This document shows, one piece after another, positions 12,287 through 60,462 of a DNA stretch of 64,000 nucleotides (positions are counted from its first letter, which is position 1; each line of letters starts with the position of its first letter). The notes below the pieces were generated by a model, which had not been told where the DNA came from, did no database searches, and saw only the letters and a program-made list of their open reading frames with translations. Both the position numbers and the translations under genes were made by a program. Origin of the DNA: a virus (lineage: Duplodnaviria > Heunggongvirae > Uroviricota > Caudoviricetes); the IMG/VR virus record IMGVR_UViG_3300033146_003879, positions 118,990-182,989 of that record; one strand, 5' to 3'.

Positions 12287-15200
12287 TTATGACCCCTTCT
12301 TGACTGTTGAATATATCTTAACATTACGCATGCGCTGTGTTATTACTACTTTTCCTGGGCGGACGGTGGTGCGTTCTTGGGAGGCGAACTCATCAGAGTT
12401 TTGTGCTGTTAACAGCCCGCTATTTACTGTGCACGCAAACTTATTTTCCGTGTCAGCGGAGTACATTATTGCGTCCTGTATTGTTGAGTAAGGAACTAGG
12501 TCAGCATCTGTATCGTGAAAATAGAGAGGTAGGTATCCTATCGATACCGTGATTGGCACTGATAGCCCTGGAATAGATCCAGCATCTGACCATTGTGTGT
12601 GGTCTGCTGCTGTGTCGCCTACTTTTATTGCAGCTCGTGTTATACCTGAGTAAGGTGCTGTAAAGTCATCTGACAAAACAGTAGGGTCGGTACCCAACAC
12701 TAAGCCGTGATCGTGTAGCACATCTACTAGATCATCGACTAGGTCTATTTCTAAGCTTATTCCTAATGATAGGTCAGCAAATGCATTTATTGGGGAGATC
12801 TCTATCTCGTGATCTAGGTTTAGTGGATCAGTTGCTGTGCTAGGGGTGTTGAGTTTTATGTCTACGGCGATCTGTTCGAACGTGAGTTCCCGCAAAACAC
12901 TATCCGACACAGCCATGGCTATTGTGTGTAGAGTTGCTTTCCCAGGGACAGGCGGTGTATACATGTCAGGGTTACTAACAAGCACATTGTTGTCTTCAAA
13001 CACAATGTCAGTTGCTGTTCTTGTGATTATGAGAGGTGATGACACATCAGGGTAGTAGGAGAGATCACTGAGTGTATCGTTCATGGTCATGGTTTCAAGG
13101 GTTGTTTCTCGGGTACCATCAACACTGGATATGGTAGGGTCAGCAAGCTGTAGTACGTGGAACTCTCCGCTACTATCCTGTACGGAGGCGTCGTACTGTT
13201 GTCTTATGAATGTTGCGCTGTAGTCTTTCGCCGCTTCTGCCAGAGGAGGGTAGGCTACTATATCTTTGTTCCTTCCGAGAGAATCATCTCTATCAGCAAC
13301 GTACTTGGTAAGTCCTAGGTCTAATACAGTCCTCTCGGTACCTTTATATAAGTTGGTTATGTCGACACGGGTCTCCCCTGCTGCGTATACACCCGGGGTG
13401 CTCCTTATTAAGGTTACTTTTTTTATGTAGTTTGCAGCATCTACGTTGAAATACTTACGGGAAACACCGGGGGATACCTCTGATACTGCGTATACAGGAA
13501 GTGTAATCATTGCGAATGGAAATACCTTTGTTTTGTTTGCAGTAGAAGTTGCCCCTGCGAGCTTTATTTTCGATAACAGCCCTAAACTTTGCGCAAAGGA
13601 ACCTGAACCTAGATCTGAATCTGGACTATCTATTTCACGATAATAAGTAGACATTCTATATTTTTCTGAAGTGGGGTTGGTGTCGGTATTAGGCACTGTG
13701 TTTAACTGTATTGGGTTAAATACAAAAGTGTCGGATGCGGAGGTGGGGTCAGTTGTAGCATCAGTCTTTGTGGCAATTATTGATGGGTTAAACAAAGCTA
13801 TGTGAGCTATGTCGTATTGGGGTGCGGATGTATAGGTTGCTGCCCTTGATGATTCTATTGCTGGGTAGAACTTCTCTGTTGTTGTTGTTGCTGTTATGTA
13901 ATCTCCGTAAGTCGTGCTTGTTAAGGACTCATATGAAATCCCGTACACAAGAGCTAGTATGTACTCAGCGGAGAACAGTACAGATCTGTTTTTCGCACAA
14001 TTACCTCTAGCGCTAGAACTGAGCTTCAGGTCAGTATAATAGTCAACATCTACTGTGAAGTTGTCCACCATCGCATCCGGTAATGATCTGTTTAATGTCC
14101 TCTTTAAGTAAGTTTGTACCAGAGATGTGCTGTAGGTTTTTCTTAAAAGTGTTCTGAATCTTGTGAATGTATCGATTGTTAGTGTGTCGTGCGCTGGAGG
14201 TGGGCTGTAGTCAGAAAGGCTCTCCAAGACGTGCTGTACGTTGATGTATGTGTCTATGTTTGTGGCGGCAGATGTGAATACAGTTCTCCGTAACAGTGAT
14301 GCCTCATTATATCTGCCAAATGCTCGCTGATCGTGGCCGTTGGTCCCATCCGATCCCGCTACAGCGGTAGTGTAAATAGAATTAACTGTAGCGTCAACCA
14401 CCAGGTCTCCTGCTTGTCCGCCGAGGCGTGCTCCGGATGATTTGTCGTTTATTGCTATTGTTGTAGCTTGCCCCATTGATAGATTGCTTAGGAGATCCGA
14501 TAAAACGACGTGCATTGACGCCTGAGGCTCGTGGGTTATAGATATTGTGTCTGATATATCTCCGAAATGTATGGAGTATCCTGTTGCGGTGTCTCCTGTG
14601 TGTTCTATTTTTGTTTCATTAACGCCGCCGTATATACGTTTTGTGGATCCCCCGAGAAATAAGTTCAGAGATGAGTATATTGACGAATACCCTGTAAACT
14701 GGTCTCCTACTAATCCATGTTCAGGGGACTCAAGTGCAGGTAGAGGTCTTCTCATAATCGCTTGTTGAGGGAGAGGGGTGAATGGAGGTAACCCTTCACC
14801 ACTATTGGTTGTTGTTATAGCTCCGTTCGTCCCTATTATTGTTCCACCAGATCTAAAGTTCCCTACATTAACGCCGGGATCTCTCACATTACCTATGTAT
14901 GTGCTGCGTTTTGTTGCTCCTAGTATGTCTGTCACAACATACGCTTTTGGTTCTGCCCCGTGGGCATTGGGAGTTATTATGTTTATGAAACCTGTTGGTA
15001 GTATTGCCCCGACATATACAGGTGTTGTTGGGCTAGGCGTCCCTAGTAACAAAGGGATGAGAGGCAGTGTGTATGTTGTTGGTGATATTCTTTTCCATCT
15101 ATCAACGTGTATATTGTTTAAGTCGCTCGCCAAATCCGTTACCTCAATAGAGAACCCAACAGCAGATACTGTCTCAGGGTTTATCAACAACTCGGTACGC

Positions 15201-17101
15201 TTAACTGAATCAGGGTACACAGAAGATCTTCTGTTTATCAGCTCATAAAGAGCGGTAAACATCTGATCAATATACACAAGACTATCTTTTCCTGGTATTG
15301 TTGTGGTAGCCTCGTCTTGTGGTACTACTGGCCCTAACATTGTTGGAAATAGGTCTTTGTATGGCGCCGATGGGGTACCTCCCCACTCCTCTATGGCGTC
15401 GTAGGTTACGTTTGATAAGCGGGTTGCACCACCCGAAAAGAAACTTCCTCCAGACCCCGTCGACATAACGATGCTCGTCTCCCCTGTATGGAGAAAGTAG
15501 TCGAGATAATCATCGAGGTTTATTACTGTTCCATCAAGGAATGTTATCTTTTTCTCAGTAACAGTAAACATAGGTAAGAATGTGTCCTTCATGTATGCTG
15601 TACCGTCGCCAGGGTCAGGTGCACCTGTGTTGTGGTACAGGTAAGGATTGTTCTTATGGGAAGGTTTGTAGATGTCCCAAACTGGTACTTTCAGGCTTGG
15701 GTCAAACGTAGGATCTAGTTCTGTTGTTCCAGGCGCCATATTTGCTATAGCGTGTCCTAGTGATGCTGGTATGAATGCAAATTGAGCACTGGATGATGAT
15801 CCGTTTAAGTATTCGAAGTTTGTGTTTCCGGTTGAGGTTACGGTAGGGGTGTCGAACATTGATTTTTGTACCCCTTCTCTAGCAACAACAAATCCATAAG
15901 TTCCTGTATTTATGAAGTTAGCGTCGTATTTGGGGTGACCGTTTATCTCAGTGCTTGTGAGTTCGCCTGACACATCCCCTCGAGAAAACAAGAAGGGGTG
16001 GTGTCTTCCGTACGTAGGAACATCACCGTCATCAAGAGGTAGTTGATCATCAAATGAAACAGGTCTACCCTCAAACACAGGAGGAAACGCCGATGCTCCA
16101 GGGATCTCTATTCGGACACTACGTGGTTTTATTGTGGCTATGTAAGGTTTTTCTTCTCGGTTCTTCATGAATGTCATGTTGAGAGGGGTGGTCAACAAGG
16201 TGGATGGTGGTACTACCTCAGGGAATATCTTAACGTGAAGCGGGAATAAACCGTCATTAAACGTGCGTGCTGACCCAGCTGTAACAGACCCTAGTGCAGA
16301 TAACAAGTCACCTACAGTCATACTTGCAATGTCACACACAATGCGAATTGTAGTATACCTCTTTTTATTGTCAATAAGAACAGGATCCTCAACAAACGTA
16401 CCGTGCTTGTCTGCCTCAGTATTGTGCTCAACGATAATCGAGATGTTGTGATGTACTGCGGTCGTAAATATATCAGGGTTAGCACCCCCCTCATCAACGT
16501 ACAACATAAGAACTGTTTCTGCGTCGAAAGGAGATGGTTCGTCAGGTGATAGAGGTATCGCATGGTAGTATTCACCGTAACCTCCGAGCCCGTAGTTAAG
16601 AATCAGGGTGTAAGCGTCAGCTGTGTCAATAGATCCTGAAGAGTCCCAGTTACTTGCTGCCGCAAATCGAACCGGAACATATTGTAAGAGACGGCTGCCA
16701 GGAACACTTGTTCCGATAACACCAGAAAGGTCTCCCGGTTTCCATACTCGGATATTCACATCGCGGTCTTTCTTGTAGTAAGGGCTTCCGTAGGTCGCTT
16801 CCGGTGGGGGAGGAACAGCCGCAGGATGTCCCACAGCAGTTGCGCTAGGTTCACTTTGAGCGCTCATATACAGTTGGATCTTATCGAGGAACAACCTATG
16901 CTCAAGGCTTGACACCTCACTTTGGTTAATCCCATGCATTAGGCTAACCATCCGAGAATAAGCAGAACTACCGTAGAGCTCCGATTGACGAACGGGGTCA
17001 CAGTCCTTGTAAAAAATACCGCTGTTCTTAATGTTGTTCTTTTTGTAATCGCGAGCCATGAGTCTCCTCCTTGTTGTCACATCGAAATTATAGTAGAACA
17101 A
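12287..17101 (-). CDS. giant structural protein (1604 aa)
   Basis: Uninterrupted 4.8-kb ORF. First gene of the minus-strand structural operon, downstream of an AT-rich divergent control region. Confidence 0.6.
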   Translation of the reverse strand: MFYYNFDVTTRRRLMARDYKKNNIKNSGIFYKDCDPVRQSELYGSSAYSRMVSLMHGINQSEVSSLEHRLFLDKIQLYMSAQSEPSATAVGHPAAVPPPPEATYGSPYYKKDRDVNIRVWKPGDLSGVIGTSVPGSRLLQYVPVRFAAASNWDSSGSIDTADAYTLILNYGLGGYGEYYHAIPLSPDEPSPFDAETVLMLYVDEGGANPDIFTTAVHHNISIIVEHNTEADKHGTFVEDPVLIDNKKRYTTIRIVCDIASMTVGDLLSALGSVTAGSARTFNDGLFPLHVKIFPEVVPPSTLLTTPLNMTFMKNREEKPYIATIKPRSVRIEIPGASAFPPVFEGRPVSFDDQLPLDDGDVPTYGRHHPFLFSRGDVSGELTSTEINGHPKYDANFINTGTYGFVVAREGVQKSMFDTPTVTSTGNTNFEYLNGSSSSAQFAFIPASLGHAIANMAPGTTELDPTFDPSLKVPVWDIYKPSHKNNPYLYHNTGAPDPGDGTAYMKDTFLPMFTVTEKKITFLDGTVINLDDYLDYFLHTGETSIVMSTGSGGSFFSGGATRLSNVTYDAIEEWGGTPSAPYKDLFPTMLGPVVPQDEATTTIPGKDSLVYIDQMFTALYELINRRSSVYPDSVKRTELLINPETVSAVGFSIEVTDLASDLNNIHVDRWKRISPTTYTLPLIPLLLGTPSPTTPVYVGAILPTGFINIITPNAHGAEPKAYVVTDILGATKRSTYIGNVRDPGVNVGNFRSGGTIIGTNGAITTTNSGEGLPPFTPLPQQAIMRRPLPALESPEHGLVGDQFTGYSSIYSSLNLFLGGSTKRIYGGVNETKIEHTGDTATGYSIHFGDISDTISITHEPQASMHVVLSDLLSNLSMGQATTIAINDKSSGARLGGQAGDLVVDATVNSIYTTAVAGSDGTNGHDQRAFGRYNEASLLRRTVFTSAATNIDTYINVQHVLESLSDYSPPPAHDTLTIDTFTRFRTLLRKTYSTSLVQTYLKRTLNRSLPDAMVDNFTVDVDYYTDLKLSSSARGNCAKNRSVLFSAEYILALVYGISYESLTSTTYGDYITATTTTEKFYPAIESSRAATYTSAPQYDIAHIALFNPSIIATKTDATTDPTSASDTFVFNPIQLNTVPNTDTNPTSEKYRMSTYYREIDSPDSDLGSGSFAQSLGLLSKIKLAGATSTANKTKVFPFAMITLPVYAVSEVSPGVSRKYFNVDAANYIKKVTLIRSTPGVYAAGETRVDITNLYKGTERTVLDLGLTKYVADRDDSLGRNKDIVAYPPLAEAAKDYSATFIRQQYDASVQDSSGEFHVLQLADPTISSVDGTRETTLETMTMNDTLSDLSYYPDVSSPLIITRTATDIVFEDNNVLVSNPDMYTPPVPGKATLHTIAMAVSDSVLRELTFEQIAVDIKLNTPSTATDPLNLDHEIEISPINAFADLSLGISLEIDLVDDLVDVLHDHGLVLGTDPTVLSDDFTAPYSGITRAAIKVGDTAADHTQWSDAGSIPGLSVPITVSIGYLPLYFHDTDADLVPYSTIQDAIMYSADTENKFACTVNSGLLTAQNSDEFASQERTTVRPGKVVITQRMRNVKIYSTVKKGS

Positions 17102-17294: not shown

Positions 17295-17570
17295 AGTCCC
17301 CAAATCAACGTAACTACCTGATAATACTACATGCACTTGGGGACTACTCGGGGACTTACTCTGATATTCGGGGACTTATTCCTCCTTTGCAAAGTAGCAT
17401 TAGTTGTATACTTTATTTAGTATCACAAGTGATACGTTAGGTTTACTGTAGTATACAATCCAAATAATTAAACGTCTTGTGTTCGTGTTTTTGTGTATTT
17501 CTGTGCAATGCTAGTCCCCAGATTTGCCGAGTAACTCCCCGGATCTTGGAATAACTCCCCAAATTTACCC
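17295..17570. promoter_or_regulatory. divergent control region with about 7 GGGGACT / AGTCCCC repeats
   Basis: agtcccca at 17295 and 17513, ggggact x3 at 17337-17385, actcccc at 17544 and 17564. Lies between the starts of 12287..17101 (-) and 17721..20115 (+). Confidence 0.45.
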
Positions 17571-17720
17571 TTCTGTTTTTCGCCACTTTATCCTCTTGTT
17601 TATTTTTGTGTGCGGCATTTTAATTAGACGCATATTTAATCAACAAATTATTTTTAATCAACCAGTACTTCCCCTTGTTATATACCCTATAATTAGAGTG
17701 ACGTTATTTTGGAGGCATAA

Positions 17721-20115
17721 AATGCATAATGTAAAACCGTATCAAGTTAGAAGACAAGCGGATGGTGAGCTCCACCCTGTAGCTATAACGGAGAGGCTAC
17801 TCGCTGTTCGTGACAAACAGTACTCAAGCCCTGTATTATTGCTTCGAGAACAACCCTACCTGCTTGATGGAACACCTACTGTTGCTGTGACACGTGTGTT
17901 AGCAGTGAGTTCACCACTAACAGAGGTTGCTCCTACGGCCGTTGTTCCTATAGAGTCCTTTGTTGTTAGTTACACAGAAGGCATTATATACCTGAACGAG
18001 TCTGAGGTCCCTACCGGAAGTGATGTAAGTGCTGCTTTATATATAGTAGAGTATAGTGGGCTAGGTACACTCGTCAGCACAAGAGATATTCTCAGCCGAG
18101 ACGCTGATGCGTCAAACGCGAGTGACACAAATAGTGCTCTCCAGCGCTTTAACGTAACAGATTCTTACAAACTGGACCCCTCATCATATACGGCGTCTGC
18201 ACAAACAACAGCAGACTCAGTCAATGATGTCTTCTCCTTCGTCCTCTCCGGGGTATATATAACTGTTGCGCGCAATTCTACGGTCTCGTTTATGGAGATG
18301 GATAGATCCACAGCAACACTGAACGCAGTAGCAATAACATCAGACGCGATACCTAATCTAGCAGCCTCAAACCCTGCAGATATATGCATCATATCAGAGT
18401 CTGCTACTGCAATACACGACGGGCTTGGCGGCTTACACTTATTTACCTTGTCAGGAACCTCTTCCGGGACAGCGCGCCGCCTCAAAGTAACATCATTTAA
18501 ACTAGGCTTTACTCCGATAAAACTTGCGGTATTATCACCAGGGAACGACTCTATTATTGTGACATATGTCATGGGTAACGGTACTGGTGCTTATTCCACA
18601 GGGTATTTGCGCTTAACATCCGGACTTATGTTGTTTGATCAAGTAAACATAGACATAAGTAGTCACATAGATACCGGGTTTATTGATATACTCAGTGTGT
18701 CCTCAATACAAGGACCAAACACAACATTTAGTATTTTACAGAGCACCGGAGGAACAACAGTAAGCGTGACGTCGCTGTACTTCAATAGTTATATTTACGA
18801 CGCTCCTGCAGGAGAAGTTATAAGAACAGGAACCCTACCATTTTCAGGGAACATGTACTCCTTCGCCGCCGGCTACGGACCCGACGGCTCTGTTGTAGTA
18901 GCAACGTTTGCCTCATTTACTATGGGACCAAATCTCTATACTACAGCAATACACCCAGATGGAGAGTGCACTACCCTAACCTTCCCGCTGATGCCGAACG
19001 AACAGATTGTGAGCACCACCCGATCACACGGACTCTACATAGGTGTTACTCGCTACCTCGACGGCTCGGATGTGCACTTAAGAACAGCGTTATTCGACTT
19101 TGCAAATTATGAGATAAGCCCCCCTTTAGACATAAATGCATCCGTCACAATCGGTCCGGTTGCACACAGAGAGAACCTTTCTGTATTTACCTATGAATAC
19201 GGAGGCTTTGCCCAAATTATTTACTACGACAACCGCACAGCGAGTAACACGAAGTACGTCCTTGACTATGCGCGGTTCGACACAAAAAGAGACGACTGCG
19301 TACATCCTGACGGACTGCTCCAATGGGAAGGCGACGTCATTAGTGACGAGACTTACATAGACGATACAACACCAGGAGTCCAACTTACTCTGCTAACAAC
19401 ATGTAAAGACACAGAGATTGAGGCAAATTCAGCAGGAACAATCGAGGCTACCGTAACAGGAAAACAAGATGTAACAGGGGACGTCGCGAGCTTCAGAGTT
19501 ACTGCAACTATTCATAATGATGGAATGGCAACAACTATTGTAGGGACCCCAACAACAACAGTACTCGCGAGCACGGCTGGTGCTACAGGCTGGGTAGCGC
19601 GCGCATACAATGCAGGAAACTATCTTATTATCTTTGTACATGCAGACGGCTCTACAAACAACGTACACTGGTCAGCAGAAGGGTTTGTTGTTAAAACAGA
19701 ACTACCTGCAGTTTACACACCAGGAAGCCTTGCTGTATGGGAAGGAGAGACGACAACAGATGAAACTTACGTCAACGATACGACACCAGGAACAAAGTTC
19801 ACATTAGTGCCGGCATCAACAGTAGATACACTAGCGAGTGGTGAGATTGCCAACGTATCAGCTGTAGTTACTGCCGCATCTGTTTCTGGTGAAGCTGCAA
19901 GCTTTAGAATAGAAGGGACTGTGCAGTATGACGGATCCACAACAATTCTTATAGGAACACCTACCGTGTCTGTTCTCGCAGCGTCTGCCGCCGCAGTTAC
20001 ATGGAGAGCACGTGTTTACTTCGATAGCAATCAGATCGTTATTTATGGACACGGGGACGGTAGTGGCGGCGACACTATTACTTGGAACGCCAAAGGTATT
20101 CTTATTAAGTTCTAA
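17721..20115 (+). CDS. tail-fibre / receptor-binding-like protein with internal ~130-aa domain duplication
   Basis: Start at ATG 17721 is preceded by ggagg. Two C-terminal repeats (TYIDDTTPG...WSAEGFVVK and TYVNDTTPG...WNAKGILIKF). Ser/Thr/Gly-rich composition typical of fibres. Confidence 0.5.
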
Positions 20116-24158: not shown

Positions 24159-24499
24159 TGGTGGAGGCGGCGGGAATCGAACCCGCGTCCTAAAAACCTT
24201 CAAGATAGATACTACATGTTTAGTCCGTCTTTACTAAAATCTTCGGCGCCAACGGACAGGCCCCTCGAAGTTTCCTACGCTAAAGTTTTCGTGGCATCTC
24301 CCACATAGAAAGGATCAACCCTTAGTCTCACAGTTGTGCGCCCCAATTGGTGTCGTGAGCACCCCTCCAATAGGACGGCAGCTTATGCTGCTATGAGTTC
24401 AGTTTTTGCGTCTCTGAACGTGCCGCTTTTTACGAGGCCCGCGGCGCCTCGACATGCATCTATTCTCTCCGCGAATCCAGTCGAAACCAGGTCGCCCCC
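24159..24499 (-). ncRNA. ssrA: tmRNA (ssrA-like), about 341 nt, phage-encoded
   Basis: Minus strand reads 5' GGGGGCGACCUGGUUUCGACUGGAUUCG ... GGACGCGGGUUCGAUUCCCGCCGCCUCCACCA 3'. The 7-bp acceptor stem (GGGGGCG / CGCCUCC) carries a G3.U pair. T-arm GCGGG-UUCGAUU-CCCGC with terminal CCA. Internal putative tag frame ends ...ACU GAA CUC AUA GCA GCA UAA (TELIAA*). Confidence 0.8.
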
Positions 24500-26215: not shown

Positions 26216-27079
26216 CTACCTCCATCCATTCGTCAGCGTCCCATCTTCATAGATTACGCCGTACTTGTTATTAACTGCTCCTGCGAGCGCCTTGTATGCC
26301 ACTTTCACTCCATCCATGACAGATGCTTTCAGCGTCTCTTCACACATAAAGCATGATCTCTTTAACAGCAACGGGGTCTTCATCCCAGGAAACAACCGGT
26401 TCGTGTCAATATGTTTCTGACACCCACTAAAGTAAGGGCTCCCGAGCTTAATGTCAAACACGTCCTCAAATGAGACGAAATACTCTTCTCCGTGCTGGAT
26501 CTCACTCAGCTTTATTTCACTGAATCCCATTGCGTCGTAGTGCCGGAGGCACGCTTCAATATCCTCTCTCTTATAGAGAAAAGGCTTCACGATGTTTATA
26601 TTGATCCGGATTTTCTCCTTGTGCGGCAAGCTGTTGTAAAACGCCTGCCTGTCATACTCAGACTTTGTTCTTCGTATCGAGTCTGCGACAGCTTCGTCAT
26701 GATGTTGCACACTCAGGTTGATACCGTCACACATGTCAATGAGTCGCTCAAACATCTCACGCTCATCATGGCATATCTTCGGGACCGCCGTCGTCACAAA
26801 CACTTTGAGTTTCGTGTTCGCTTTAATGAGGATAACACAATCAAGCAACTCTTTCAGATACAGAGCCGGTTCTCCTCCAAGAAACAACACATCATCATAC
26901 CCTTCAGCATTGTTCGCAACCGTATCAGCGATAGCATAGATGTCCGGTTTGTTAATACCGAACCCCGCATAGTGCGTATCGATGCAATGTGCACACTTGT
27001 TGTCACATGCACTTGTGAAGTGTATGTCGAAACTGTTGTATGTGCCGTCGCAGCTGTTTTTTACGAATTGGTTCTTCAT
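26216..27079 (-). CDS. radical SAM enzyme (CxxxCxxC), viperin-like features
   Basis: HFTSACDNKCAHC close to the N-terminus, LFLGGEPAL glycine-rich SAM motif, C-terminal ...TNGWR. Compare viperin HFTRQCNYKCGFC, SGGEPFL and its terminal Trp. Confidence 0.6.
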   Translation of the reverse strand: MKNQFVKNSCDGTYNSFDIHFTSACDNKCAHCIDTHYAGFGINKPDIYAIADTVANNAEGYDDVLFLGGEPALYLKELLDCVILIKANTKLKVFVTTAVPKICHDEREMFERLIDMCDGINLSVQHHDEAVADSIRRTKSEYDRQAFYNSLPHKEKIRININIVKPFLYKREDIEACLRHYDAMGFSEIKLSEIQHGEEYFVSFEDVFDIKLGSPYFSGCQKHIDTNRLFPGMKTPLLLKRSCFMCEETLKASVMDGVKVAYKALAGAVNNKYGVIYEDGTLTNGWR

Positions 27080-29294: not shown

Positions 29295-29807
29295 TCATAG
29301 TCGGAAATCCCTCATTGTTTCTCCTGTACCCTCTGCCCTTACATACTGTGCGTGTGCTAGTTCTGGTTCTCCTGCAGCGGTGAATATGTCGCCCTGCAAC
29401 TTGGCGAGTATAGCTCGTGACTCAGTAGAGTATCCAGAGTAGTACTCCGCCTTCTCCACAACGGCAATATACCGCCAGAACCACCTGTCATCATCACGTA
29501 GATCCCGTCGAACAAGAGCACTTCTTACAAATGTGTCTGCGATAGTTGCAGCATGTGCAATGTGATTAACATGTTCAAGCCTTCCCATGAAACGAACAAC
29601 ACAGTCAATAGCACCTACTTGACTAGTTGCCATCGACACGCACCGCCGCGCGTTAGCCTCCATCCGTGCTCTCGGTGCGGGCACAAGGGAATCATGTAGC
29701 TTCATAGCTACAGGAGCAACAATCAACAACAAAACCAAAGCAATCGCTATTAAGTCAATACAGGGAGACCAACAGAACTTCCCATCTAGTTTACATAAGT
29801 TAAACAT
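29295..29807 (-). CDS. hypothetical membrane-anchored protein (170 aa), first gene of the rSAM cluster
   Basis: Hydrophobic helix LIAIALVLLLIVAPVA. Promoter motif about 85 nt upstream. Confidence 0.45.
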   Translation of the reverse strand: MFNLCKLDGKFCWSPCIDLIAIALVLLLIVAPVAMKLHDSLVPAPRARMEANARRCVSMATSQVGAIDCVVRFMGRLEHVNHIAHAATIADTFVRSALVRRDLRDDDRWFWRYIAVVEKAEYYSGYSTESRAILAKLQGDIFTAAGEPELAHAQYVRAEGTGETMRDFRL

Positions 29808-29907: not shown

Positions 29908-29992
29908 TATGAGAAAATAGAGGCAGTTATCCAACAGCCCGTAAAACCCGGTCTCTGTAGGCCAGGCCCGACAAAGGCCGGGATATAAGGGC

Positions 29993-30367
29993 TTACTGAT
30001 TCTTAATGTATGTCTTGATGACTTCGAGCGGTGCGCCGCCAGAAGACGTAACGTAATAAGACGGGGACCATAATTTCTTGTGCCGTCTTAATTCCGGGTA
30101 TAAAGCTCTGAGCTTTTTGCTTGTTGGCCCCTTAACTGCCTGCACTATAGAGGAGATTGACTCTGTCGAAGGGTATTCAATAAGGAGGTGGACGTGATCT
30201 AAATCGCCGTTACATTCCTCAAGCGTGATCCCCTTCTTCTTGAACGCCTGTCTTGCATAATATGCGAAGTCTCCAAGTATTCTCGGAGAAAGCACCTTTC
30301 TCCTATACTTCGTTACCAATACGAGGTGTGCATGCAAGCTGCTTATGTTTGTTCTTGACTTCCTCAT
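29993..30367 (-). CDS. tnpA: IS200/IS605 Y1 (HUH) transposase TnpA
   Basis: LHAHLVLVTKYRRKVL ... DHVHLLIEYP (HuH) ... LWSPSYYVTS (catalytic Tyr). Confidence 0.85.
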   Translation of the reverse strand: MRKSRTNISSLHAHLVLVTKYRRKVLSPRILGDFAYYARQAFKKKGITLEECNGDLDHVHLLIEYPSTESISSIVQAVKGPTSKKLRALYPELRRHKKLWSPSYYVTSSGGAPLEVIKTYIKNQ

Positions 30368-30389
30368 AACCCTAAGTATACTCTTTTGT

Positions 30390-31508
30390 ATGAAAGTGTC
30401 AAGAGCATATAAATACCGCCTTTACCCTACGCGAGAACAAGAGATTAAGTTGTCTCAGTTCGTTGGAAACAATAGATATCTCTGGAACTTCGTTCTATCC
30501 GCTCTCGAAGGCAAGAAGTGGGACCGATTCGCTGTTTCCAAACAACTTCCTTCACTTAAGTCTGAAATACCATTCCTTAAAGAATCTCCGTCTCAAGCGT
30601 TTCAACAATTGTTAATTGATATGGATGCTGCATTTAAGAGCTTCTTTCGGAAGAAACACGGATATCCGAAGTTTAAGAAACGCGGTATGCACGACTCTTT
30701 TAGAATACCGGTTGTGAAGTCCCCTGAATCTATAAACAAGAATAGCTGCGTCTGGATACCAAAATTGGGTTTTGTGGAACTGCGTTTGTCGCGTGAGGTG
30801 AGAGGAGAAGCGAAGTCTATCACTGTGTCTCGGAGAGCGGGAAAATGGTTTGTCTCAATATTGACGAAAAGCGAGATGCAGGAAACAGGCGGAAAGACAG
30901 GAAATAGTGTAGGAATTGATCTCGGCGTTAAACACTTCGCGACAACGTCGGGCGGAAAGCATATACATGCTCCAGAGGAAAGAGTGCGCTATTTAGAGAA
31001 GAGAATAGAGCGCATGCAGAGGAAAGTCAGTAGAGCGAAGAAAGGATCAAGCAACAGAAGCAAGTTGCGTCTTAAATTAAGTAGACTCCACTTAACTCTC
31101 GCGAATGTGAAAGAAGACTTCTTGCACAAGGTGAGCACACAGTTAATCAAGAACCACGATTTACTTGTGCTCGAAGACCTTGGTGTAAAGGAGATGACAG
31201 AAGCAGGAGCGAGAAAAGCGAAGTTAAATAGAGCAATCTTGCGTCAAGGTTGGTATAAATTTAGGACTTTACTTGAGTATAAGAGTATGTGGTATGGCTG
31301 TGCCGTAGTGTTCGTCCCGCCTCAATTCACGAGTCAGCGCTGTAGCGAATGCGGGAATATAAACGCAGCAAACAGAAAGACACAATCGTCATTTAAATGC
31401 CTTTCGTGTGGCCATACTGAAAACGCTGATATAAACGCAGCTAAGAACATTTTCACCGTCGGGCAGACGGGTAGAGCCTTTGGAGACGCCGCGCTAGCGG
31501 GTCGATGA
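30390..31508 (+). CDS. tnpB: TnpB (OrfB, RuvC-like, RNA-guided nuclease family)
   Basis: N-terminus KVSRAYKYRLYPTREQ, GIDLGVKHFATTSGG (RuvC-I), C-terminal zinc finger CSECG...CLSCGH, DINAAKNI. Confidence 0.85.
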   Translation: MKVSRAYKYRLYPTREQEIKLSQFVGNNRYLWNFVLSALEGKKWDRFAVSKQLPSLKSEIPFLKESPSQAFQQLLIDMDAAFKSFFRKKHGYPKFKKRGMHDSFRIPVVKSPESINKNSCVWIPKLGFVELRLSREVRGEAKSITVSRRAGKWFVSILTKSEMQETGGKTGNSVGIDLGVKHFATTSGGKHIHAPEERVRYLEKRIERMQRKVSRAKKGSSNRSKLRLKLSRLHLTLANVKEDFLHKVSTQLIKNHDLLVLEDLGVKEMTEAGARKAKLNRAILRQGWYKFRTLLEYKSMWYGCAVVFVPPQFTSQRCSECGNINAANRKTQSSFKCLSCGHTENADINAAKNIFTVGQTGRAFGDAALAGR

Positions 31509-31526
31509 ATTAGGAATCCCGGTCTT

Positions 31527-32180
31527 TCAAGGCCGGGAGGATGTCAAGACGTTGAAACCCATCTCAATCAACTTTACGAGATGTTCTGGGCTGTGCCCGA
31601 CATTAAGTGTATAGGGGCCTCCACCGACAGTGTAATCCAACATAACGCTGGAGTCTCCCTCATTGAAGCGTAGTTTACCAAACTTCGCAATCATGATTCC
31701 TGGGAACCAACTCTCAATAATCTTTTTCTCATGCTCTTTGATGTCGGACAGGAGCCTACTGCCCATTTTAACCCTACAAGGTTCACCGCAGTTTACCATT
31801 CTATCCTCCCCAAATACATCGCATATTTCATACACGATTTGATTACTACCGTTAAACCGAGACACAGGAAGCTTTCTAGCCACCATCTTATCCTGGTTAT
31901 GCCACACAGAACCTCTTGGAGACAGTGCTACAAATCGCGTTTCCCAGTCTTTAACCTTATCAAGGTAGTGTTTATAGTGCTCCGGGGAAATATCATATGA
32001 GATATCAGTTATTTCATTGCTTGCTGCTATATCAGACAGTGCCTGCATAGCGACTTCATGCTGCCCTACATTCCCGACAGGAATATAGATTGGACTAAAG
32101 TGCTTTTTGTCTTCCCAGTCTTTCTGGGAGACTCTCTTAATCGATTCGATTTGTTCTTTGCTGAGACTTTCTTTAACCAC
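31527..32180 (-). CDS. hypothetical protein (217 aa) next to the RNA ligase
   Basis: ORF. No clear phosphoesterase or kinase motifs seen. Confidence 0.4.
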   Translation of the reverse strand: MVKESLSKEQIESIKRVSQKDWEDKKHFSPIYIPVGNVGQHEVAMQALSDIAASNEITDISYDISPEHYKHYLDKVKDWETRFVALSPRGSVWHNQDKMVARKLPVSRFNGSNQIVYEICDVFGEDRMVNCGEPCRVKMGSRLLSDIKEHEKKIIESWFPGIMIAKFGKLRFNEGDSSVMLDYTVGGGPYTLNVGHSPEHLVKLIEMGFNVLTSSRP

Positions 32181-32598
32181 TCTTCTCCTCCCATTTTCTC
32201 AACTGTTTCATCAAACTTCCATCAACATCAAGGCGTCCGTCACCCATGGGATTTCCAAAACTGAACCACCCACCATCGACGGTACGAGTAAATGTTAGCG
32301 GGGTATTTTCTTCATCATCCAGATGACCATATACTAGCACGTCAGTTTCCTTTGCATACAATCCCGAGCACTGGTCAACCTCTTGTTTCCACAGCTCTCT
32401 CAGATCCTTTCGCGCGGTATTAAAGGAAGCAACGGTTTGTATATAGGCCCGGTTGTGCCGGGTCATTTTGACCTTTCCGTCGTCGAAGAAGTCATACTCC
32501 TCCCCTACCAACGGGACAGGCATTAATTTTCTAACTCCCATAGTGTTCCCCTCCATCTCCGTGGTTAGTAACAGCCGCTCTAATACCCTCTGCGACAC
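32173..32598 (-). CDS. hypothetical protein (141 aa); part of it is duplicated at 34156-34400
   Basis: PLVGEEYDFFDDGKVKMT...SGLYAKETDVLVYGHLDDEE recurs in the downstream ORFs. Confidence 0.4.
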   Translation of the reverse strand: MSQRVLERLLLTTEMEGNTMGVRKLMPVPLVGEEYDFFDDGKVKMTRHNRAYIQTVASFNTARKDLRELWKQEVDQCSGLYAKETDVLVYGHLDDEENTPLTFTRTVDGGWFSFGNPMGDGRLDVDGSLMKQLRKWEEKSG

Positions 32599-33511
32599 TT
32601 CCGATAGCTATAACACCATCGATAAGGAGCATGCCGAGATGAATTAGTGTTTTAACGCTATCATGCTGTACCCCAGACACAGGTAAAGAAGGGTTAACCT
32701 CTTTCCCTGACACCGCGAGCTTCCCATCGTCTGCCGCAGAGAATTCAACATCAACAAGAATATCTTTGACACCCTCTCGAACAGAGTCAAGAACAGCAGG
32801 ATCTTTGATAAACAACTCAACATCCTTTCTTGTAGCGGGAACAGGCTCCATATCCCACTCTTCAATGATATTCCTCTCCGGCTTTATCTTAACCATGATA
32901 CGCTTACCACTTCTGGTGAGCATACCAAGAGGCGCCTTCAATACGACACCTTCTGCGGGATACTCTTTGTTCTCCGCAATTAACGACTTGAAGTCGTTGT
33001 TGACCAGGGCATCTGCTTCGGCAAGACTCATGTTTCCGAGAAACGGAACAACAAGAATCCCTATACGGGCCGCAATGTTTTCTATATCTTTTCTCTGCAA
33101 CCACCAGCCCCCTACACGAATATCAAACAGAATGAAGGACACATCTTTCTTTATGTAGTTCCCTCCTTTCTGAATCTTCACACCATACCCTTCTCCATAG
33201 AGACAGACGACCTGTCCACCCTCAAGAGTAAACCCTTTCTTAAGAGTCTCCGGAGTAAACAACTCATGCAGCTTCTTGTCAAGGTGCCCCGGCAAGATAG
33301 CTTTATCCGTCTTACCCCGGATATCGACTTTCTCTCCATCCCAGATAACACGAATGTTCGTGCCGTCTATTTTCTCTGTTGCTTCCCACAGGGCGTTCTC
33401 GAGTACCTCAAATTCAGGCATTGCGTACGCGCCTCTTATGAGAGGCTTATTTTTCATATGCATAGCCCTCTTCCACAAAGAGTTTATCTTTGTATACTTT
33501 CCTCCGTTCAT
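32531..33511 (-). CDS. ATP-dependent RNA ligase, Rnl2-like
   Basis: Motif I EKIDGTN (compare T4 Rnl2 EKIHGTN), motif IV EGVVLK, motif V IMVKIKPE. Start MNGG is preceded by GGAGGGAGAAGG. Confidence 0.7.
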   Translation of the reverse strand: MNGGKYTKINSLWKRAMHMKNKPLIRGAYAMPEFEVLENALWEATEKIDGTNIRVIWDGEKVDIRGKTDKAILPGHLDKKLHELFTPETLKKGFTLEGGQVVCLYGEGYGVKIQKGGNYIKKDVSFILFDIRVGGWWLQRKDIENIAARIGILVVPFLGNMSLAEADALVNNDFKSLIAENKEYPAEGVVLKAPLGMLTRSGKRIMVKIKPERNIIEEWDMEPVPATRKDVELFIKDPAVLDSVREGVKDILVDVEFSAADDGKLAVSGKEVNPSLPVSGVQHDSVKTLIHLGMLLIDGVIAIGSVAEGIRAAVTNHGDGGEHYGS

Positions 33512-33524
33512 CCTTCTCCCTCCT

Positions 33525-33806
33525 CTAAACACTATCAATAAACTTGAGAAGCTCCTCTTTCTTTTTCTTGACCTCTGGAGTCAGTTCCACCTCGTGTCTC
33601 CTGATCCTCGGGAACACACCGTACTCATCTTCATAGATACTATACATTATACCCAGACCTACAGCAGGCTCTACGTATCCAAACAGATGAGAAGGCAGGG
33701 ATAACGTCACTTTCCCAAACCTAACGGAAACGAACTCGTCACTGTACGAAACTATTACACCTGACTTCTCTGCTATCAGGTTAATCATCTGCTTTCCCGT
33801 CCACAA
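33525..33806 (-). CDS. hypothetical protein (93 aa)
   Basis: ORF. Confidence 0.35.
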   Translation of the reverse strand: MWTGKQMINLIAEKSGVIVSYSDEFVSVRFGKVTLSLPSHLFGYVEPAVGLGIMYSIYEDEYGVFPRIRRHEVELTPEVKKKKEELLKFIDSV

Positions 33807-34378: not shown

Positions 34379-34792
34379 CCGCTCGGGCTTTATTTTACCC
34401 ATCTCCTCTCCGCGAGAAGTGTCTCGGTTCTCTTCTGCCACGAGCGTCACCGTAACATCCATTGGGCCAAGATCACGCAAATAACCACCGGACTCGGGGC
34501 CAGTATTCTTGACAACAAAGAACACTTTTTCCTCCCCTGCTATTTCGATTAGACGCTCTTTCGTTATTTCGATAACACGGAAGCCGGCGTCTACGTAGAC
34601 ATGCGTGACCTGAGGCAGTACATCAACAAGTTCATTATTCCCAGCCCTAAGCATGCGCACTTGCTCTCTCTTTACTTTTAATTCAGATTCGGTCGCCGCG
34701 AGCTCCACGTTAGACTTATTTAACGCGTCTGCAAGAAAAGCAACAAAAGTGGCAGCGATCAGCACTGCGATTACAAATAGGATGTATATCAT
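34259..34792 (-). CDS. hypothetical membrane-anchored coiled-coil protein (carries the duplicated fragment in its C-terminus)
   Basis: N-terminal TM helix MIYILFVIAVLIAATFVAFL and a helical region. C-terminus is SGLYAKETDVFVYGRFEDEE. Confidence 0.4.
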   Translation of the reverse strand: MIYILFVIAVLIAATFVAFLADALNKSNVELAATESELKVKREQVRMLRAGNNELVDVLPQVTHVYVDAGFRVIEITKERLIEIAGEEKVFFVVKNTGPESGGYLRDLGPMDVTVTLVAEENRDTSRGEEMGKIKPERNRRKQEVGRCSGLYAKETDVFVYGRFEDEETYPVGGGRV

Positions 34793-35313
34793 AGCAATCC
34801 TTCCTCCATCATCCTGTCCACCACCTCTTTGAGGTAGTAGTGTGTTTGTAGCAACGCGGTTACGTCAGTAAACTCCCTGATAGCAGTGAATAGAGCATCT
34901 TCCTCCTGATCAGTCACTTTTCTAATAGACGCCACCTTTCCCATGTCCCCTACTCTTTGCGCCATGAGGAATTGGTCTGCATTCTGTGCCTCTGCCTGCC
35001 TCCTCGCAATTGTCTTGAGTATATCTTGTGTTAGCTCCGGGCGAGTATCCCTGACAAAAACATCAGGGTAGTCCCGAATAAGAACACGCTGCCCAAGGGC
35101 CGCCTGACATATATGTATGCCATCGGCCCAATTCCTCCCAACATCTTCTCGGAGGACAGGGAGTCGCGCATACTTGTTATGCGCTTCGATGAGCAGGTCC
35201 ATTACCTCCCGCTCCTCCTCGGTAAAGGGGTCTTTACTAGTCATAATTTTCTCCCCCGTCAACAATAACATCGAGTTCTTTAGTTGTAACAGTACCACCT
35301 TCGCGGACGGCAT
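34789..35313 (-). CDS. hypothetical protein (174 aa)
   Basis: ORF. Confidence 0.4.
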   Translation of the reverse strand: MPSAKVVLLQLKNSMLLLTGEKIMTSKDPFTEEEREVMDLLIEAHNKYARLPVLREDVGRNWADGIHICQAALGQRVLIRDYPDVFVRDTRPELTQDILKTIARRQAEAQNADQFLMAQRVGDMGKVASIRKVTDQEEDALFTAIREFTDVTALLQTHYYLKEVVDRMMEEGLL

Positions 35314-35623
35314 AACTTAACTTCCGCGTAAGAGCCTCACGCAGTATCTCATCTCTACCAATTGGGACCTCGACTCCTGAGATTGTCATAAATAATCGAC
35401 ACTCCCTACTTTCAATCAAGGAAATAAGTTTATCGTTGCCTGCCTTCACGCGATACAGCGTAAACGCAGCTTCCTCTTTATCCTCTTGCAGCCTTTTTAT
35501 GTAGTCACTAAGGTCTGCTAGTGTTTTGTTTGCCTCCCACAGTAGTAGTGAGGTAACGGTTGCTATTATTGTCATACACAAAGCGAGCATTGGCATAAAT
35601 ATATTAAATAAATCAACAGGCAT
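35237..35623 (-). CDS. hypothetical membrane-anchored protein (128 aa)
   Basis: N-terminal helix FMPMLALCMTIIATVTSLLLW. Confidence 0.4.
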   Translation of the reverse strand: MPVDLFNIFMPMLALCMTIIATVTSLLLWEANKTLADLSDYIKRLQEDKEEAAFTLYRVKAGNDKLISLIESRECRLFMTISGVEVPIGRDEILREALTRKLSYAVREGGTVTTKELDVIVDGGENYD

Positions 35624-35638
35624 AATATTGCCCTCCTT

Positions 35639-36235
35639 TTAAAAGTTAACAATCCCCGTCGCATCAGGCAACGTCTCAGTAGGGTCCCTATCTCCATTCT
35701 TATTGAGCTCCCAATTTACCATATGAGGGTATCGGATAGCCTCCCAGTTTATGTTGTATTTAACTGGGAGCAGGGCAAGTATTTTCTTAACCCCATCCTC
35801 TACCTCAGCAGGCAGTACGCCACAGAGCGAATCCCCTACTTTGAATCGTTTTGCAATATGACGAGCTTTCCTCTCAACTTCCTTAGAAGAAGGACTGTTG
35901 TAGAAAGAGTCAGTCTTCACGTGTACGACATTGAAGCTCTTATCGATAACGACTTTCAGTGGAGCTTTAGTCACGTGACTTGCGCCTCCACCCCAATCAC
36001 CGTAGCCTGATATGACACTACCGAACCCGATCTCGAGGCATTTACTGTTATACAGTTTTTTGTCGGTTATAGATGTATAACCAACACCGTTTCTCACACG
36101 AATATCCTTCCCGAGCACATCTGCTATTCTGAGTAGCTTCTTCTCGACAACAACCTCCCTCTCTGGCTGAATCAATGTAAAGATTGCTCCTGAAAGCGCG
36201 ATGGCGAATACCAATACTACTATCCACATAATCAC
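35639..36235 (-). CDS. hypothetical membrane-anchored protein (198 aa)
   Basis: N-terminal helix MIMWIVVLVFAIALSGAIFTLI. Confidence 0.4.
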   Translation of the reverse strand: MIMWIVVLVFAIALSGAIFTLIQPEREVVVEKKLLRIADVLGKDIRVRNGVGYTSITDKKLYNSKCLEIGFGSVISGYGDWGGGASHVTKAPLKVVIDKSFNVVHVKTDSFYNSPSSKEVERKARHIAKRFKVGDSLCGVLPAEVEDGVKKILALLPVKYNINWEAIRYPHMVNWELNKNGDRDPTETLPDATGIVNF

Positions 36236-43807: not shown

Positions 43808-46442
<2,635 letters not shown>

Positions 46443-46594: not shown

Positions 46595-46633
46595 CACCCT
46601 CCTATAATTTACACAGAATAGATGGAGGGTAAT

Positions 46634-47506
46634 ATGGGAAGCTTTCTTAAGTATGCTAAATTAATGCTCGACATAAATATCGGAGATATTATGTTAACCG
46701 GTCGATTCAAGAATCACCGCGAGGTAGTAAAAACAATGGGTACTGACGAGCTTGGGCAGCCACTGATAAATGGGAAGAAACTACTTGATATGCGCATCGA
46801 GAAGAAACTCCCTTTTGAGAAGAGAAGTAAGAAGACAAAGGAAGAGTCAGGAAAGAGTGTAAAGAAGTTCAGTAAGAAAGCGGACCAAAAGTCAATGGTG
46901 ATAGACGGCGACAAGATACAAGGCGTAGGCATGAGAAGAACACTGCATGACTATCTTGATGAAAAAGGAATTAAAGGCGTTGCTGTTAATGATGCGAAGA
47001 CCGGGAATGTCGAGGTGACTGTAGATGCCCCAACAAAAGACGATGCGGTGCGCGCTCTTGAAGAACTAAAGGTGATCGCAAACAACCGTGTTGGTGAACC
47101 GCTGCGCTACAATATGCCTAAGCGTCCTCTACCGTTACGGGACGCAGTAATAACAAACGAGGACATGGAGCGGTTCAACACAAAGTCATACGAAAGCTTT
47201 CTCCGATCACGTAAGCTTCATCCTGAAATGCGGTTCTCAACAGGTAGACTTCCGCTTGAAGATGTCATAAGGGAAACAGCAGAACGCTATCGACTACAGC
47301 GCGGAGAAGGTGATGTTGCCTTGCAAGGACTCGTCACAGCAAGAGCATTACGGCAACTCCTAAACAAGGAAACACAATACGAATTCATGCGTAGAGAGAA
47401 CCTTGTTCGCAGTAAAGCCGAGGGGTATGCGTTACTCGCTAAGATAAAAGCGATGCGTGAGGCAAATGGAAGAGGAGACGACACCGACTGGCCATCAAAA
47501 AAATAA
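46634..47506 (+). CDS. protein with acylphosphatase-like domain
   Basis: IDGDKIQGVGMRRTLHDYLDEKGIKGVAVNDAKTGNVEVTV matches the acylphosphatase V-x-G-x-VQGV-x-FR signature. GGAGGG RBS. Confidence 0.45.
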   Translation: MGSFLKYAKLMLDINIGDIMLTGRFKNHREVVKTMGTDELGQPLINGKKLLDMRIEKKLPFEKRSKKTKEESGKSVKKFSKKADQKSMVIDGDKIQGVGMRRTLHDYLDEKGIKGVAVNDAKTGNVEVTVDAPTKDDAVRALEELKVIANNRVGEPLRYNMPKRPLPLRDAVITNEDMERFNTKSYESFLRSRKLHPEMRFSTGRLPLEDVIRETAERYRLQRGEGDVALQGLVTARALRQLLNKETQYEFMRRENLVRSKAEGYALLAKIKAMREANGRGDDTDWPSKK

Positions 47507-58224: not shown

Positions 58225-59322
58225 TTACTTATTAGACTTACGTCTATTACAGCTCTTACAAAGCACCTGGCAGTTAGCGGAGATGGTTTTCCCACCTTCG
58301 CTCCACGGTGTAATGTGGTCAGCCTCCATGTCCTCTATGATAAACTTCTTCTTGCACATAGAACATTTCTTTTTCTGTTTCTCATACACAGCTATTTTCA
58401 TAGCAGGTGTGAACGCACGGATTGATAAGTAGCGCTCATCTCCGGTAAGAACGTAGGAGTACATGCCGCGTTTTGCTGTGACGTCATCATCAAGTATTAG
58501 TCTAGCGATCTCGACTTCGAGGGCATCGGTGTCATAGGTGTTATCCTTGAACGCATTGTACAGGTAGCCCCACTCAACACCCTTCATGAATTTTGTTCTG
58601 CCCTTATTGTATTTCACTGGAAAAGTATCCTCTACCCATGTCACTACCGATTGAAAATACCTCCACAGTGCTCCTGCGTTTTGTTCTCCTTGGTGTTTTG
58701 CCATGTACGCTTCGATATTATCATCCGATATCCATCGAATCGCAGTCTCGAGATAATCTTGCCGAATAGCGGATCCAGTCAGGTACACACTTCCGATACG
58801 GTGTGCTGTGCACCCGGTCTTGCTGAAGCGCGCTTTAGCAGCAGTTACCCACGGCCCAGAATAAACAGCGTTGCGCAACTCTTGATCAGTAAGCTTCATA
58901 CCTGAGATATTAACCGTTTTAAACCACTCAAGCTTGTCGCTGTCCCCACCCTCACAGAAGTACACCATTAACTCGTAATTAAGAACCTCTTCTTTCTTAT
59001 CGGATGGGAGGTTGCTAAACAACATACCCTCAACAGAGAAGTCATCGTTAACATACTGGCATATAGACAACGTGCGCTGCTGACCATCTATTATCTCGAA
59101 TGATTCTTCTGAATTCACTGCCCAGTAGATAGCACTGAGCGGGAACCCTTTCATAACAGTGTCAATAACAGCAGCGCGCTGCTTATCATTATACACAAAC
59201 TCTCTCTGATAAGGAGGCCTGATGTCAAGTTTTCCATCTAACCCAACAACACCCCCTTCGTCAGCATCCTTGAATCCATGAACAACATCTCTTACTGTAA
59301 CTCTTTTTAATTCAACTCGCAC
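58225..59322 (-). CDS. DUF262 (ParB-like, DGQQR) + HNH nuclease fusion, GmrSD / type-IV-restriction-like
   Basis: N-terminal EIIDGQQRTLSI. C-terminal CSMCKKKF...ADHITPWSEGGKT...NCQVLCKSCNRRKSN (HNH). Confidence 0.65.
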   Translation of the reverse strand: MRVELKRVTVRDVVHGFKDADEGGVVGLDGKLDIRPPYQREFVYNDKQRAAVIDTVMKGFPLSAIYWAVNSEESFEIIDGQQRTLSICQYVNDDFSVEGMLFSNLPSDKKEEVLNYELMVYFCEGGDSDKLEWFKTVNISGMKLTDQELRNAVYSGPWVTAAKARFSKTGCTAHRIGSVYLTGSAIRQDYLETAIRWISDDNIEAYMAKHQGEQNAGALWRYFQSVVTWVEDTFPVKYNKGRTKFMKGVEWGYLYNAFKDNTYDTDALEVEIARLILDDDVTAKRGMYSYVLTGDERYLSIRAFTPAMKIAVYEKQKKKCSMCKKKFIIEDMEADHITPWSEGGKTISANCQVLCKSCNRRKSNK

Positions 59323-60415: not shown

Positions 60416-60462
60416 CATAATTAACACATCCTCAATAAAATGTTGTATAAGATACCATCCAC

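Follow-up and report, generated by a model that had tools for sequence, protein, structure and literature searches.

Insertion sequences (ISs) of the IS200/IS605 family that carry tnpB are among the commonest mobile elements. In IS605 of Helicobacter pylori, as described in ISfinder, the gene for the transposase, tnpA, and the gene for the accessory protein, tnpB, are arranged divergently. In its relative IS608 the right cleavage site (CR) is the sequence TCAA, located 10 nt 3′ of the right imperfect palindrome (IPR) (PMC3201880), and the right guide sequence (GR) is GAAT (PMC5934647). In ISDra2 of Deinococcus radiodurans TnpB acts together with an ωRNA, and the transposon-associated motif (TAM) is the target sequence of the transposon itself (PMC8612924; 10.1101/2023.11.20.567912). 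A UUCA tetraloop has been described for RNAs from the 3′ ends of tnpB genes and for HgcC, a family linked to tnpB 3′ ends (Gomes-Filho et al., PMC4615843). Here we describe an element of this kind in a 64,000-nt stretch of viral DNA (positions 118,990 to 182,989 of IMG/VR record IMGVR_UViG_3300033146_003879), which we refer to as the window and whose numbering we use throughout. The segment from 29932 to 31547 is very probably an autonomous IS of the IS605 group, with divergent tnpA and tnpB, that most probably resides in the genome of a large, uncultured phage (about 183 kb). The element is complete and canonical, and since its kind is already well known, and has been recorded in phages too, it is of little importance in itself.

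An original prediction, made from the letters of the sequence, had recognized a complete element with divergent tnpA and tnpB at 29930–31545, bounded by subterminal hairpins that share a motif. Both open reading frames (ORFs) are indeed where they had been placed, and the extent was correct to within 2 nt at each end. The true ends were fixed by alignment with a sister IS from metagenomes and with about 70 more distant relatives from bacterial genomes. Because the window and the sister IS resemble each other from the base after TTATC through GTCAA (…GGAGGATGTCAA), the boundaries are 29932 and 31547, and the element is 1616 bp long. The sister IS, which is 70% identical to the window IS in DNA, 72% in TnpB and 71% in TnpA, was recovered as 13 copies of 1600 bp that are identical except for the last base in one of them. 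They lie on many short metagenome contigs, from samples that include JGI 3300005915, 3300005916 and 3300005935 and ENA ERZ27315452, and are flanked by at least six distinct sequences on the left and at least six on the right. TTATC abuts the shared sequence in all seven distinct left flanks (that of the window and six sister-IS flank types). On the right, the sequence common to the 13 sister contigs stops at …GGAGGATGTCA(A), the final A being present in six of seven distinct right flanks.

The same ends recur in a wider clade. A TnpB-alignment scan of 185,579 bacterial and archaeal species genomes yielded 80 loci at 37–43% TnpB identity (Proteobacteria, Desulfovibrio, Eubacteriales and others; L023–L102). 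GTCAA is the terminus in 72 of the 80, which have the right end (RE) TAGGAATC-hairpin-GGAGGATGTCAA with a TTCA or TTTA loop, as in the window. The left end (LE) was readable in 13 loci and has the consensus N5-GCGCCGTAAAAC-hairpin-GATATAAGG, again as in the window; in front of it stands [T]TTATC in 11 cases and TTTACC in the other two. The original prediction had expected a TTAC-like target at the left flank; what stands there is TTATC, the norm for the clade. The target is not duplicated upon insertion, the right flank showing no repeat of TTATC. From the wider clade the window lineage is set apart by its low TnpB identity, a shorter TnpB C-terminus, a shorter internal stem in the predicted ωRNA and a 16-nt insertion in LE. 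These relatives are uninformative as to the host, the best genome matches being spread over many phyla.

The two ends of the element are related to each other as a direct repeat (AAACCCGGTCT… at the left and AATCCCGGTCT… at the right) of subterminal imperfect palindromes on the same strand, and there are no terminal inverted repeats. The predicted shared motif is real: the pattern CCCGGTCT-N4-AGGCCRGG occurs in the 64 kb on the + strand only, at 29947–29966 and 31518–31537, with no occurrence expected (100 shuffles). One-strand palindromes, the lack of terminal inverted repeats and a short, unduplicated target 5′ of the insertion are all features of IS608 and IS605, and the geometry of RE is likewise that of IS608: GAAT (31514–31517) borders the hairpin foot on the 5′ side, and TCAA lies 10 nt away on the 3′ side. 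The two elements differ in target (TTAC in IS608 and TTATC here), in the distance from the left cleavage site to the hairpin foot (19 nt as compared with 15 nt) and in the four bases that precede the left foot (AAAG as compared with AAAA).

The table lists the features of the element together with the neighboring gene into which it runs.

Features of the IS605-group element and its borders (window coordinates).
Feature	Position	Strand	Remarks
Target/TAM TTATC, left cleavage site	29927..29931	+	directly before sequence common to all copies
Left end (LE)	29932..29992	+	15-nt linker including GTAAAA, then imperfect palindrome, then ATATAAGGGC
LE palindrome arms	5′ arm CCCGGTCT 29947-29954; distal 3′ arm AGGCCGGG 29975-29982; alternative proximal arm AGGCCAGG 29959-29966	+	
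16-nt insertion in LE hairpin loop	29957..29972 (placement ambiguous by a few nt)	+	single 16-column gap against sister IS
tnpA, Y1 HUH transposase, 124 aa	29993..30367	-	HUH H58-V59-H60, catalytic Y120, terminal Q124
Overlapping divergent promoter-like sites, shared palindromic -10 (AGTATACT)	30355..30402	both	consensus scan
tnpB, TnpB RNA-guided nuclease, 372 aa	30390..31508 (ATG at 30390)	+	RuvC D177/E262/D347
Predicted ωRNA scaffold, ~138 nt	~31410..31547 (5′ limit approximate)	+	overlaps last ~33 tnpB codons and whole RE
Internal scaffold stem-loop GACgCCGC-GCTA-GCGGGTC	31485..31503 (stem 31485-31492/31497-31503)	+	compensatory changes
RE subterminal hairpin CCCGGTCT-TTCA-AGGCCGGG	31517..31538	+	closing T:A, UUCA tetraloop
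TCAA right cleavage site, last IS bases	31544..31547	+	10 nt 3′ of RE hairpin foot
Predicted ωRNA guide GACGTTGAAACCCATC	31548..31563	+	read-through from flank
Flanking orphan ORF, 217 aa	31527..32180	-	last six codons and stop (LTSSRP*) supplied by IS right end

Both genes are intact. TnpA matches the Pfam profile Y1_Tnp (PF01797) over positions 2–121 of 121 (E 4e-34). Although it is only distantly related to the 155-aa TnpA of IS608 (2a6m/2vhg; phmmer E 1e-14) and is without the C-terminal tail of that protein, the two align such that DHIHIL/DHVHLL and VVKQYIENQ/VIKTYIKNQ are in register and Y120 matches Y127 of IS608. The HUH motif, the tyrosine and the terminal glutamine are also in register with the sequence of the ISDra2 TnpA crystal structure. 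TnpB matches three Pfam domains (HTH_OrfB_IS605, OrfB_IS605 and Cas12f1-like_TNB) and aligns over residues 4–356 with ISDra2 TnpB (8bf8/8exa/8h1j; E 6e-47), its D/E/D triad falling on the catalytic positions. In an alignment of 18 sequences the triad and the zinc-ribbon cysteines C318, C321, C337 and C340 are invariant. Neither gene therefore carries an inactivating mutation of its catalytic set. Relative to the sister copy the nonsynonymous divergence (dN) is 0.23 for tnpA, with saturated synonymous divergence (dS), and 0.21 for tnpB, with a dS of 2.2, and dN/dS is about 0.1 for both genes. Given the low dN and the saturated dS, tnpA and tnpB have been under purifying selection since the split from the sister lineage.

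Copies that consist of tnpB only and have been exapted are common, and for that reason we considered whether TnpB had been domesticated as a nuclease-dead regulator (TldR-like) or for some other non-transposon function. We found nothing specific that would favor domestication. The intact RuvC triad and zinc cysteines, the presence of tnpA, LE and RE, and a guide position that abuts the transposon end make it extremely unlikely.

The start codons of tnpA and tnpB are separated by a 22-nt gap that falls within the overlapping promoter-like sites. These read TTGACT-16-TATACT on the + strand for tnpB and TTGACA-16-TATACT on the − strand for tnpA, matching the consensus at 10 and 11 of 12 positions, respectively. 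The interval 30347–30406 is the most conserved internal stretch of the element relative to the sister IS (93% identity as against 70% overall), and the sites would serve as a divergent promoter for the two genes. A 13-nt inverted repeat (12 of 13 positions; 30353–30365 and 31537–31549) links the start of tnpA and the −35 region of tnpB to the tip of RE. By our estimate about one such repeat is expected in 2 kb, and we regard it as being at chance level.

With ISDra2 the element shares the D/E/D triad, the zinc ribbon, a scaffold predicted to extend over the 3′ end of tnpB and RE, and a predicted guide in the right flank. It differs in its TAM (TTATC as opposed to TTGAT), in the position of tnpA (divergent here, and upstream and co-oriented in ISDra2) and in the length of TnpB (372 aa as opposed to 408 aa). 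Because the stop codon of tnpB lies only 39 nt from the end of the element, the predicted scaffold is almost wholly in coding sequence. The original prediction had assigned the ωRNA scaffold to the right end, at about 31480–31545. The region does behave like a scaffold, and on the evidence of the comparison with the sister IS it would be longer, some 138 nt, with most of it in the 3′ coding region of tnpB. DNA identity to the sister IS climbs there from about 70% to 88–95%. Within the last 33 codons of tnpB, synonymous differences are found at six of 29 conserved degenerate codons, as compared with 118 of 227 upstream (Fisher p 0.0015), and dS is 0.42, whereas elsewhere it is saturated.

Covariation provides a second line of evidence. 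We examined three helices comprising 17 pairs in 49 clade sequences: the terminal hairpin, an internal helix on its 5′ side, and a helix of two pairs enclosing the latter. The three are 93% paired, as against 40–58% with slid partners; double changes occur at 14 of the 17 pairs, and none of 500 shuffles reached the observed result. The terminal RE hairpin, whose loop in the window is TTCA, is 95% paired in this alignment and shows double changes at seven of nine pairs, and the clade equivalent of the internal helix covaries at all six. Between the window and the sister IS two pairs of the internal stem have changed in a compensatory way (A:U to C:G and C:G to U:A), both within coding sequence. 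By analogy with the known systems the RE hairpin would be read as single-stranded DNA by TnpA and would also form the last helix of the ωRNA, and its conservation may partly reflect what TnpA requires of single-stranded DNA. Thermodynamics alone gives the RNA no support: the minimum free energy of the whole scaffold has a z score of only −1.1, and the case for an ωRNA is for this reason one of conservation and covariation. The guide is assigned on the model of ISDra2 and IS605 (PMC8612924; 10.1101/2023.11.20.567912). Within the window GACGTTGAAACCCATC is unique at up to three mismatches, and TTATC followed by this sequence would specify the empty donor site.

How the element would move can be drawn by analogy with IS608 and ISDra2. 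TnpA would bind both subterminal hairpins on the single-stranded + (“top”) strand and cut on the left after TTATC and on the right after TCAA, releasing a single-stranded circle and resealing the donor; the circle would then reinsert 3′ of another TTATC. TnpB would be made from the + strand, and the 3′ part of the transcript would fold into the ωRNA scaffold and run on into the flank, which would supply a guide of about 16 nt. The TnpB–ωRNA complex would cut copies of the locus that are free of the IS, that is, TTATC followed by a match to the guide, and recombinational repair from an IS-bearing copy would restore or spread the element.

Several observations weigh against reading the locus as a functional IS with its ωRNA in a phage genome. 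One is that no Rfam family matches the scaffold at threshold, either in a gathering-mode scan or in a sub-threshold scan, so that the search for an ωRNA or HEARO family proposed with the original prediction gave no family-level result. What it gave was a sub-threshold match to HgcC (RF00062) at 31483–31560, whose 24.4 bits (E 0.005) are far below the gathering score of 50. With HgcC and the sotRNAs of IS1341-type tnpB genes the predicted transcript has in common that it is a sense transcript over the 3′ end of tnpB with a UUCA-loop hairpin followed by GAGGAnGUCA (PMC4615843); HgcC is defined in archaea. The other sub-threshold matches (CRISPR-DR16, miRNAs and lncRNAs) are noise. A second point is that the internal stem of the window is shorter than the clade helix and out of register with it in the 49-sequence MAFFT alignment. 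Because of this shift, the evidence for the window stem is the two-sequence comparison, and the terminal hairpin is the one helix of the window with clade-wide support.

A third point concerns LE, where a 16-nt insertion in the hairpin loop could impair binding by TnpA. The insertion, which partly duplicates the 3′ arm (AGGCCAGG as compared with AGGCCGGG), is specific to the window copy: the sister IS does not have it, and neither do any of the clade left ends examined, whose hairpin loops are 4–5 nt. A fourth is that the element is present in a single copy. Pattern searches found no second copy or solo end within the 64 kb, and no identical or near-identical copy was found in phage records, IMG/VR, JGI metagenome contigs, the species genomes or a protein-position index. 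The element had no megablast match among 50,697 phage records, no record was retrieved by exact look-up of either protein, TnpA or TnpB, and a 40-nt degenerate RE pattern occurred in no genome or viral contig and, among metagenome contigs, in three sister-IS contigs only. A protein search placed the window TnpB on a single JGI metagenome contig of 182,989 bp, with one close relative at 72% identity and all else at 46% or less. The identical copies that the original prediction had proposed to look for were thus absent from every collection searched, and multiple identical copies are known for the sister IS only. Such copies bear on the activity of an element and not on its membership in the IS200/IS605 family. 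Because the window IS is a single copy with no identical or near-identical counterpart, its present mobility is presumptive. Moreover, we found no empty-site allele: the protein encoded by the flanking ORF at 31527–32180 is without relatives in IMG/VR, and among 5.8 billion proteins it matches itself alone.

It follows from the LE insertion and the lack of further copies that the element might be structurally intact yet no longer mobile, a fixed resident with a damaged LE that is inherited vertically, perhaps with TnpB-mediated retention. We think this rather unlikely. The TnpA of IS608 recognizes the stem of the hairpin and not the loop, where the insertion lies. LE has lost neither its canonical 5′ arm nor its distal 3′ arm nor the ATATAAGG tail, and when folded as single-stranded DNA it still closes a long hairpin (−14.5 kcal/mol; z score −2.7). 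Both ORFs and all catalytic residues, as we have seen, are intact. An IS capable of moving remains our preferred reading.

The last of the contrary points concerns the identity of the phage. PHROG matches in the window include RNase H, an endolysin, GroES, a head maturation protease (weak, E 7e-6) and ligases, most or at least many of the ORFs are orphans, and no capsid, terminase or portal match was found among the 68 ORFs. Phage identity is plausible, on indirect evidence. The original prediction had also located the element exactly between the promoter of a radical SAM cluster and an RNA-ligase module. Instead, it sits between two orphan ORFs (29295–29807 and 31527–32180), which are on the − strand like most genes here; the radical SAM gene (26216–27079) is three genes from the IS, and the RNA ligase gene (32531–33538) is two genes from it. 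Transcription of tnpA would be in the orientation of the phage genes, and that of tnpB and the ωRNA would be antisense. The right-hand neighbor takes its last codons and its stop codon from RE. In one sister locus (L010; 1653–1690, − strand), the right-flank gene likewise takes its last codons and stop from RE (DILPALKDQDS*). The complement of TTATC is GATAA, which may favor insertion at or near stop codons.

The sister-IS contigs invite the suspicion that the IS of the window is an artefact of assembly, that is, a repeat that has joined unrelated metagenomic contigs or a host IS misplaced into a phage contig. Among the sister loci L010–L019 one left flank is joined to different right flanks and vice versa, so these contigs are chimeric across identical IS copies, and the window derives from a single metagenome contig. 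In the window, however, the two sides of the IS share one tetranucleotide signature (r 0.68–0.80 across the IS and 0.73–0.80 within a side, as compared with 0.09–0.22 for bacterial controls), which speaks against a chimera. Gene orientation and GC content show no break at the IS, the junctions are exact and canonical (TTATC and GTCAA), and the flanking ORF reads through the right one. An artefact is in our judgment very unlikely. The IS itself is an outlier in tetranucleotide signature (r 0.23 as compared with 0.50 ± 0.10 for random 1.6-kb pieces), which fits horizontal acquisition and does not date it; GC content is uninformative in this regard (45.2% for the IS and 45.5% for the window).

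The original prediction had called an active IS of this kind uncommon in a lytic-looking phage. That was an overstatement, for tblastn found TnpB homologues in 625 and TnpA homologues in 108 of the 50,697 phage records. One of them, Morganella phage IME1369_01 (KY653118.1, about 34460–36206; L110), has a complete IS that belongs to the clade as well and agrees with the window IS in its ends, in the TTATC at the left-end position and in divergent gene order. In its public record tnpA is unannotated and tnpB is labeled “putative virulence protein,” and the record is thus mis-annotated.

Might the lineage of the window IS be borne by phages? Two of about six sister-IS flank types encode homologues of window genes. 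A right-flank ORF of L010 (1653–2792, − strand) is 72% identical over 78 aa to the product of window ORF 46622–47506 (+ strand), and a left-flank ORF of L012 and L017 (216–584 of L017, − strand) is 38% identical over 116 aa (E 7e-24) to that of window ORF 32173–32598 (− strand), which lies one gene away from the IS. Other relatives of ORF 46622–47506 are on short contigs, next to a Peptidase_M15_3 gene. For nine of the 10 proteins scanned (eight from sister-IS flanks and the two window homologues) no Pfam family was above the curated cut-off, and nearly all sister-IS flank ORFs are without a Pfam or PHROG family. So far the window lineage has been seen only in metagenomic, phage-like contexts. 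These findings suggest that the sister IS is located in related phages, and the lineage may circulate among them, a hypothesis to be held with caution since the sister contigs are short and chimeric.

From here one may go further and suppose that TnpB is chiefly a nuclease for RNA-guided homing from one co-infecting phage to another, cutting the IS-free allele of a relative such that the IS and its neighbors are copied into a competitor or the competitor is destroyed, much in the manner of the free-standing homing endonucleases known from T4-like phages. The literature discusses non-restorative transposon homing for phages that co-infect a cell (PMC13565253), and the shared flank genes, the phage-like lack of Pfam families in the flanks and the absence of any relative closer than 43% in the species genomes are in keeping with the idea. 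On the other side, the sister contigs are no longer than 2.8 kb and chimeric across IS copies, which leaves their genomic origin uncertain; no IS-free allele of the locus was found; and purifying selection on tnpA favors ordinary transposition. On balance homing as the main role of TnpB is possible, though unlikely. The fuller proposal, in which the IS of the window and its sister make up a small IS605 lineage at home in phage genomes and not in bacterial chromosomes, and TnpB–ωRNA, as a nuclease for homing or marker exclusion, lets it spread horizontally by cutting IS-free alleles, over and above transposition by TnpA, we regard as doubtful. If the lineage should prove to be truly phage-borne, it would offer a natural case in which to test transposon homing between co-infecting phages. 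An autonomous IS of the IS605 group remains the reading we prefer. Its practical value would lie in a compact TnpB of 372 aa with a defined TAM, a scaffold of some 138 nt and a sister copy with which to compare it, an entry for the catalogue of miniature RNA-guided nucleases.

Finally, we note some other features of the window. A full-length gene for tmRNA is located at 24159–24499 on the − strand (Rfam RF00023, 173.6 bits), with AKTELIAA* as the tag peptide according to ARAGORN; no gene for a tRNA was detected in the window. Very large ORFs without any Pfam or PHROG match are found at 4–4761 (+ strand, 1585 aa) and 12287–17101 (− strand, 1604 aa), as well as at 17524–20115 (+ strand, 863 aa) and 9929–11794 (− strand, 621 aa). 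Two ligases are encoded by the putative phage, an NAD-dependent DNA ligase (43808–45796, − strand; PHROG 3869, E 2e-171) and, on the − strand, the RNA ligase mentioned above (PF09414, E 2e-16). At 58225–60427 (− strand) a gene for an EcoRI-type adenine methyltransferase (PF13651, E 2e-127) is directly upstream of one for a protein with GmrSD_N and HNH domains, and the two may form a phage-borne pair for restriction or anti-restriction.

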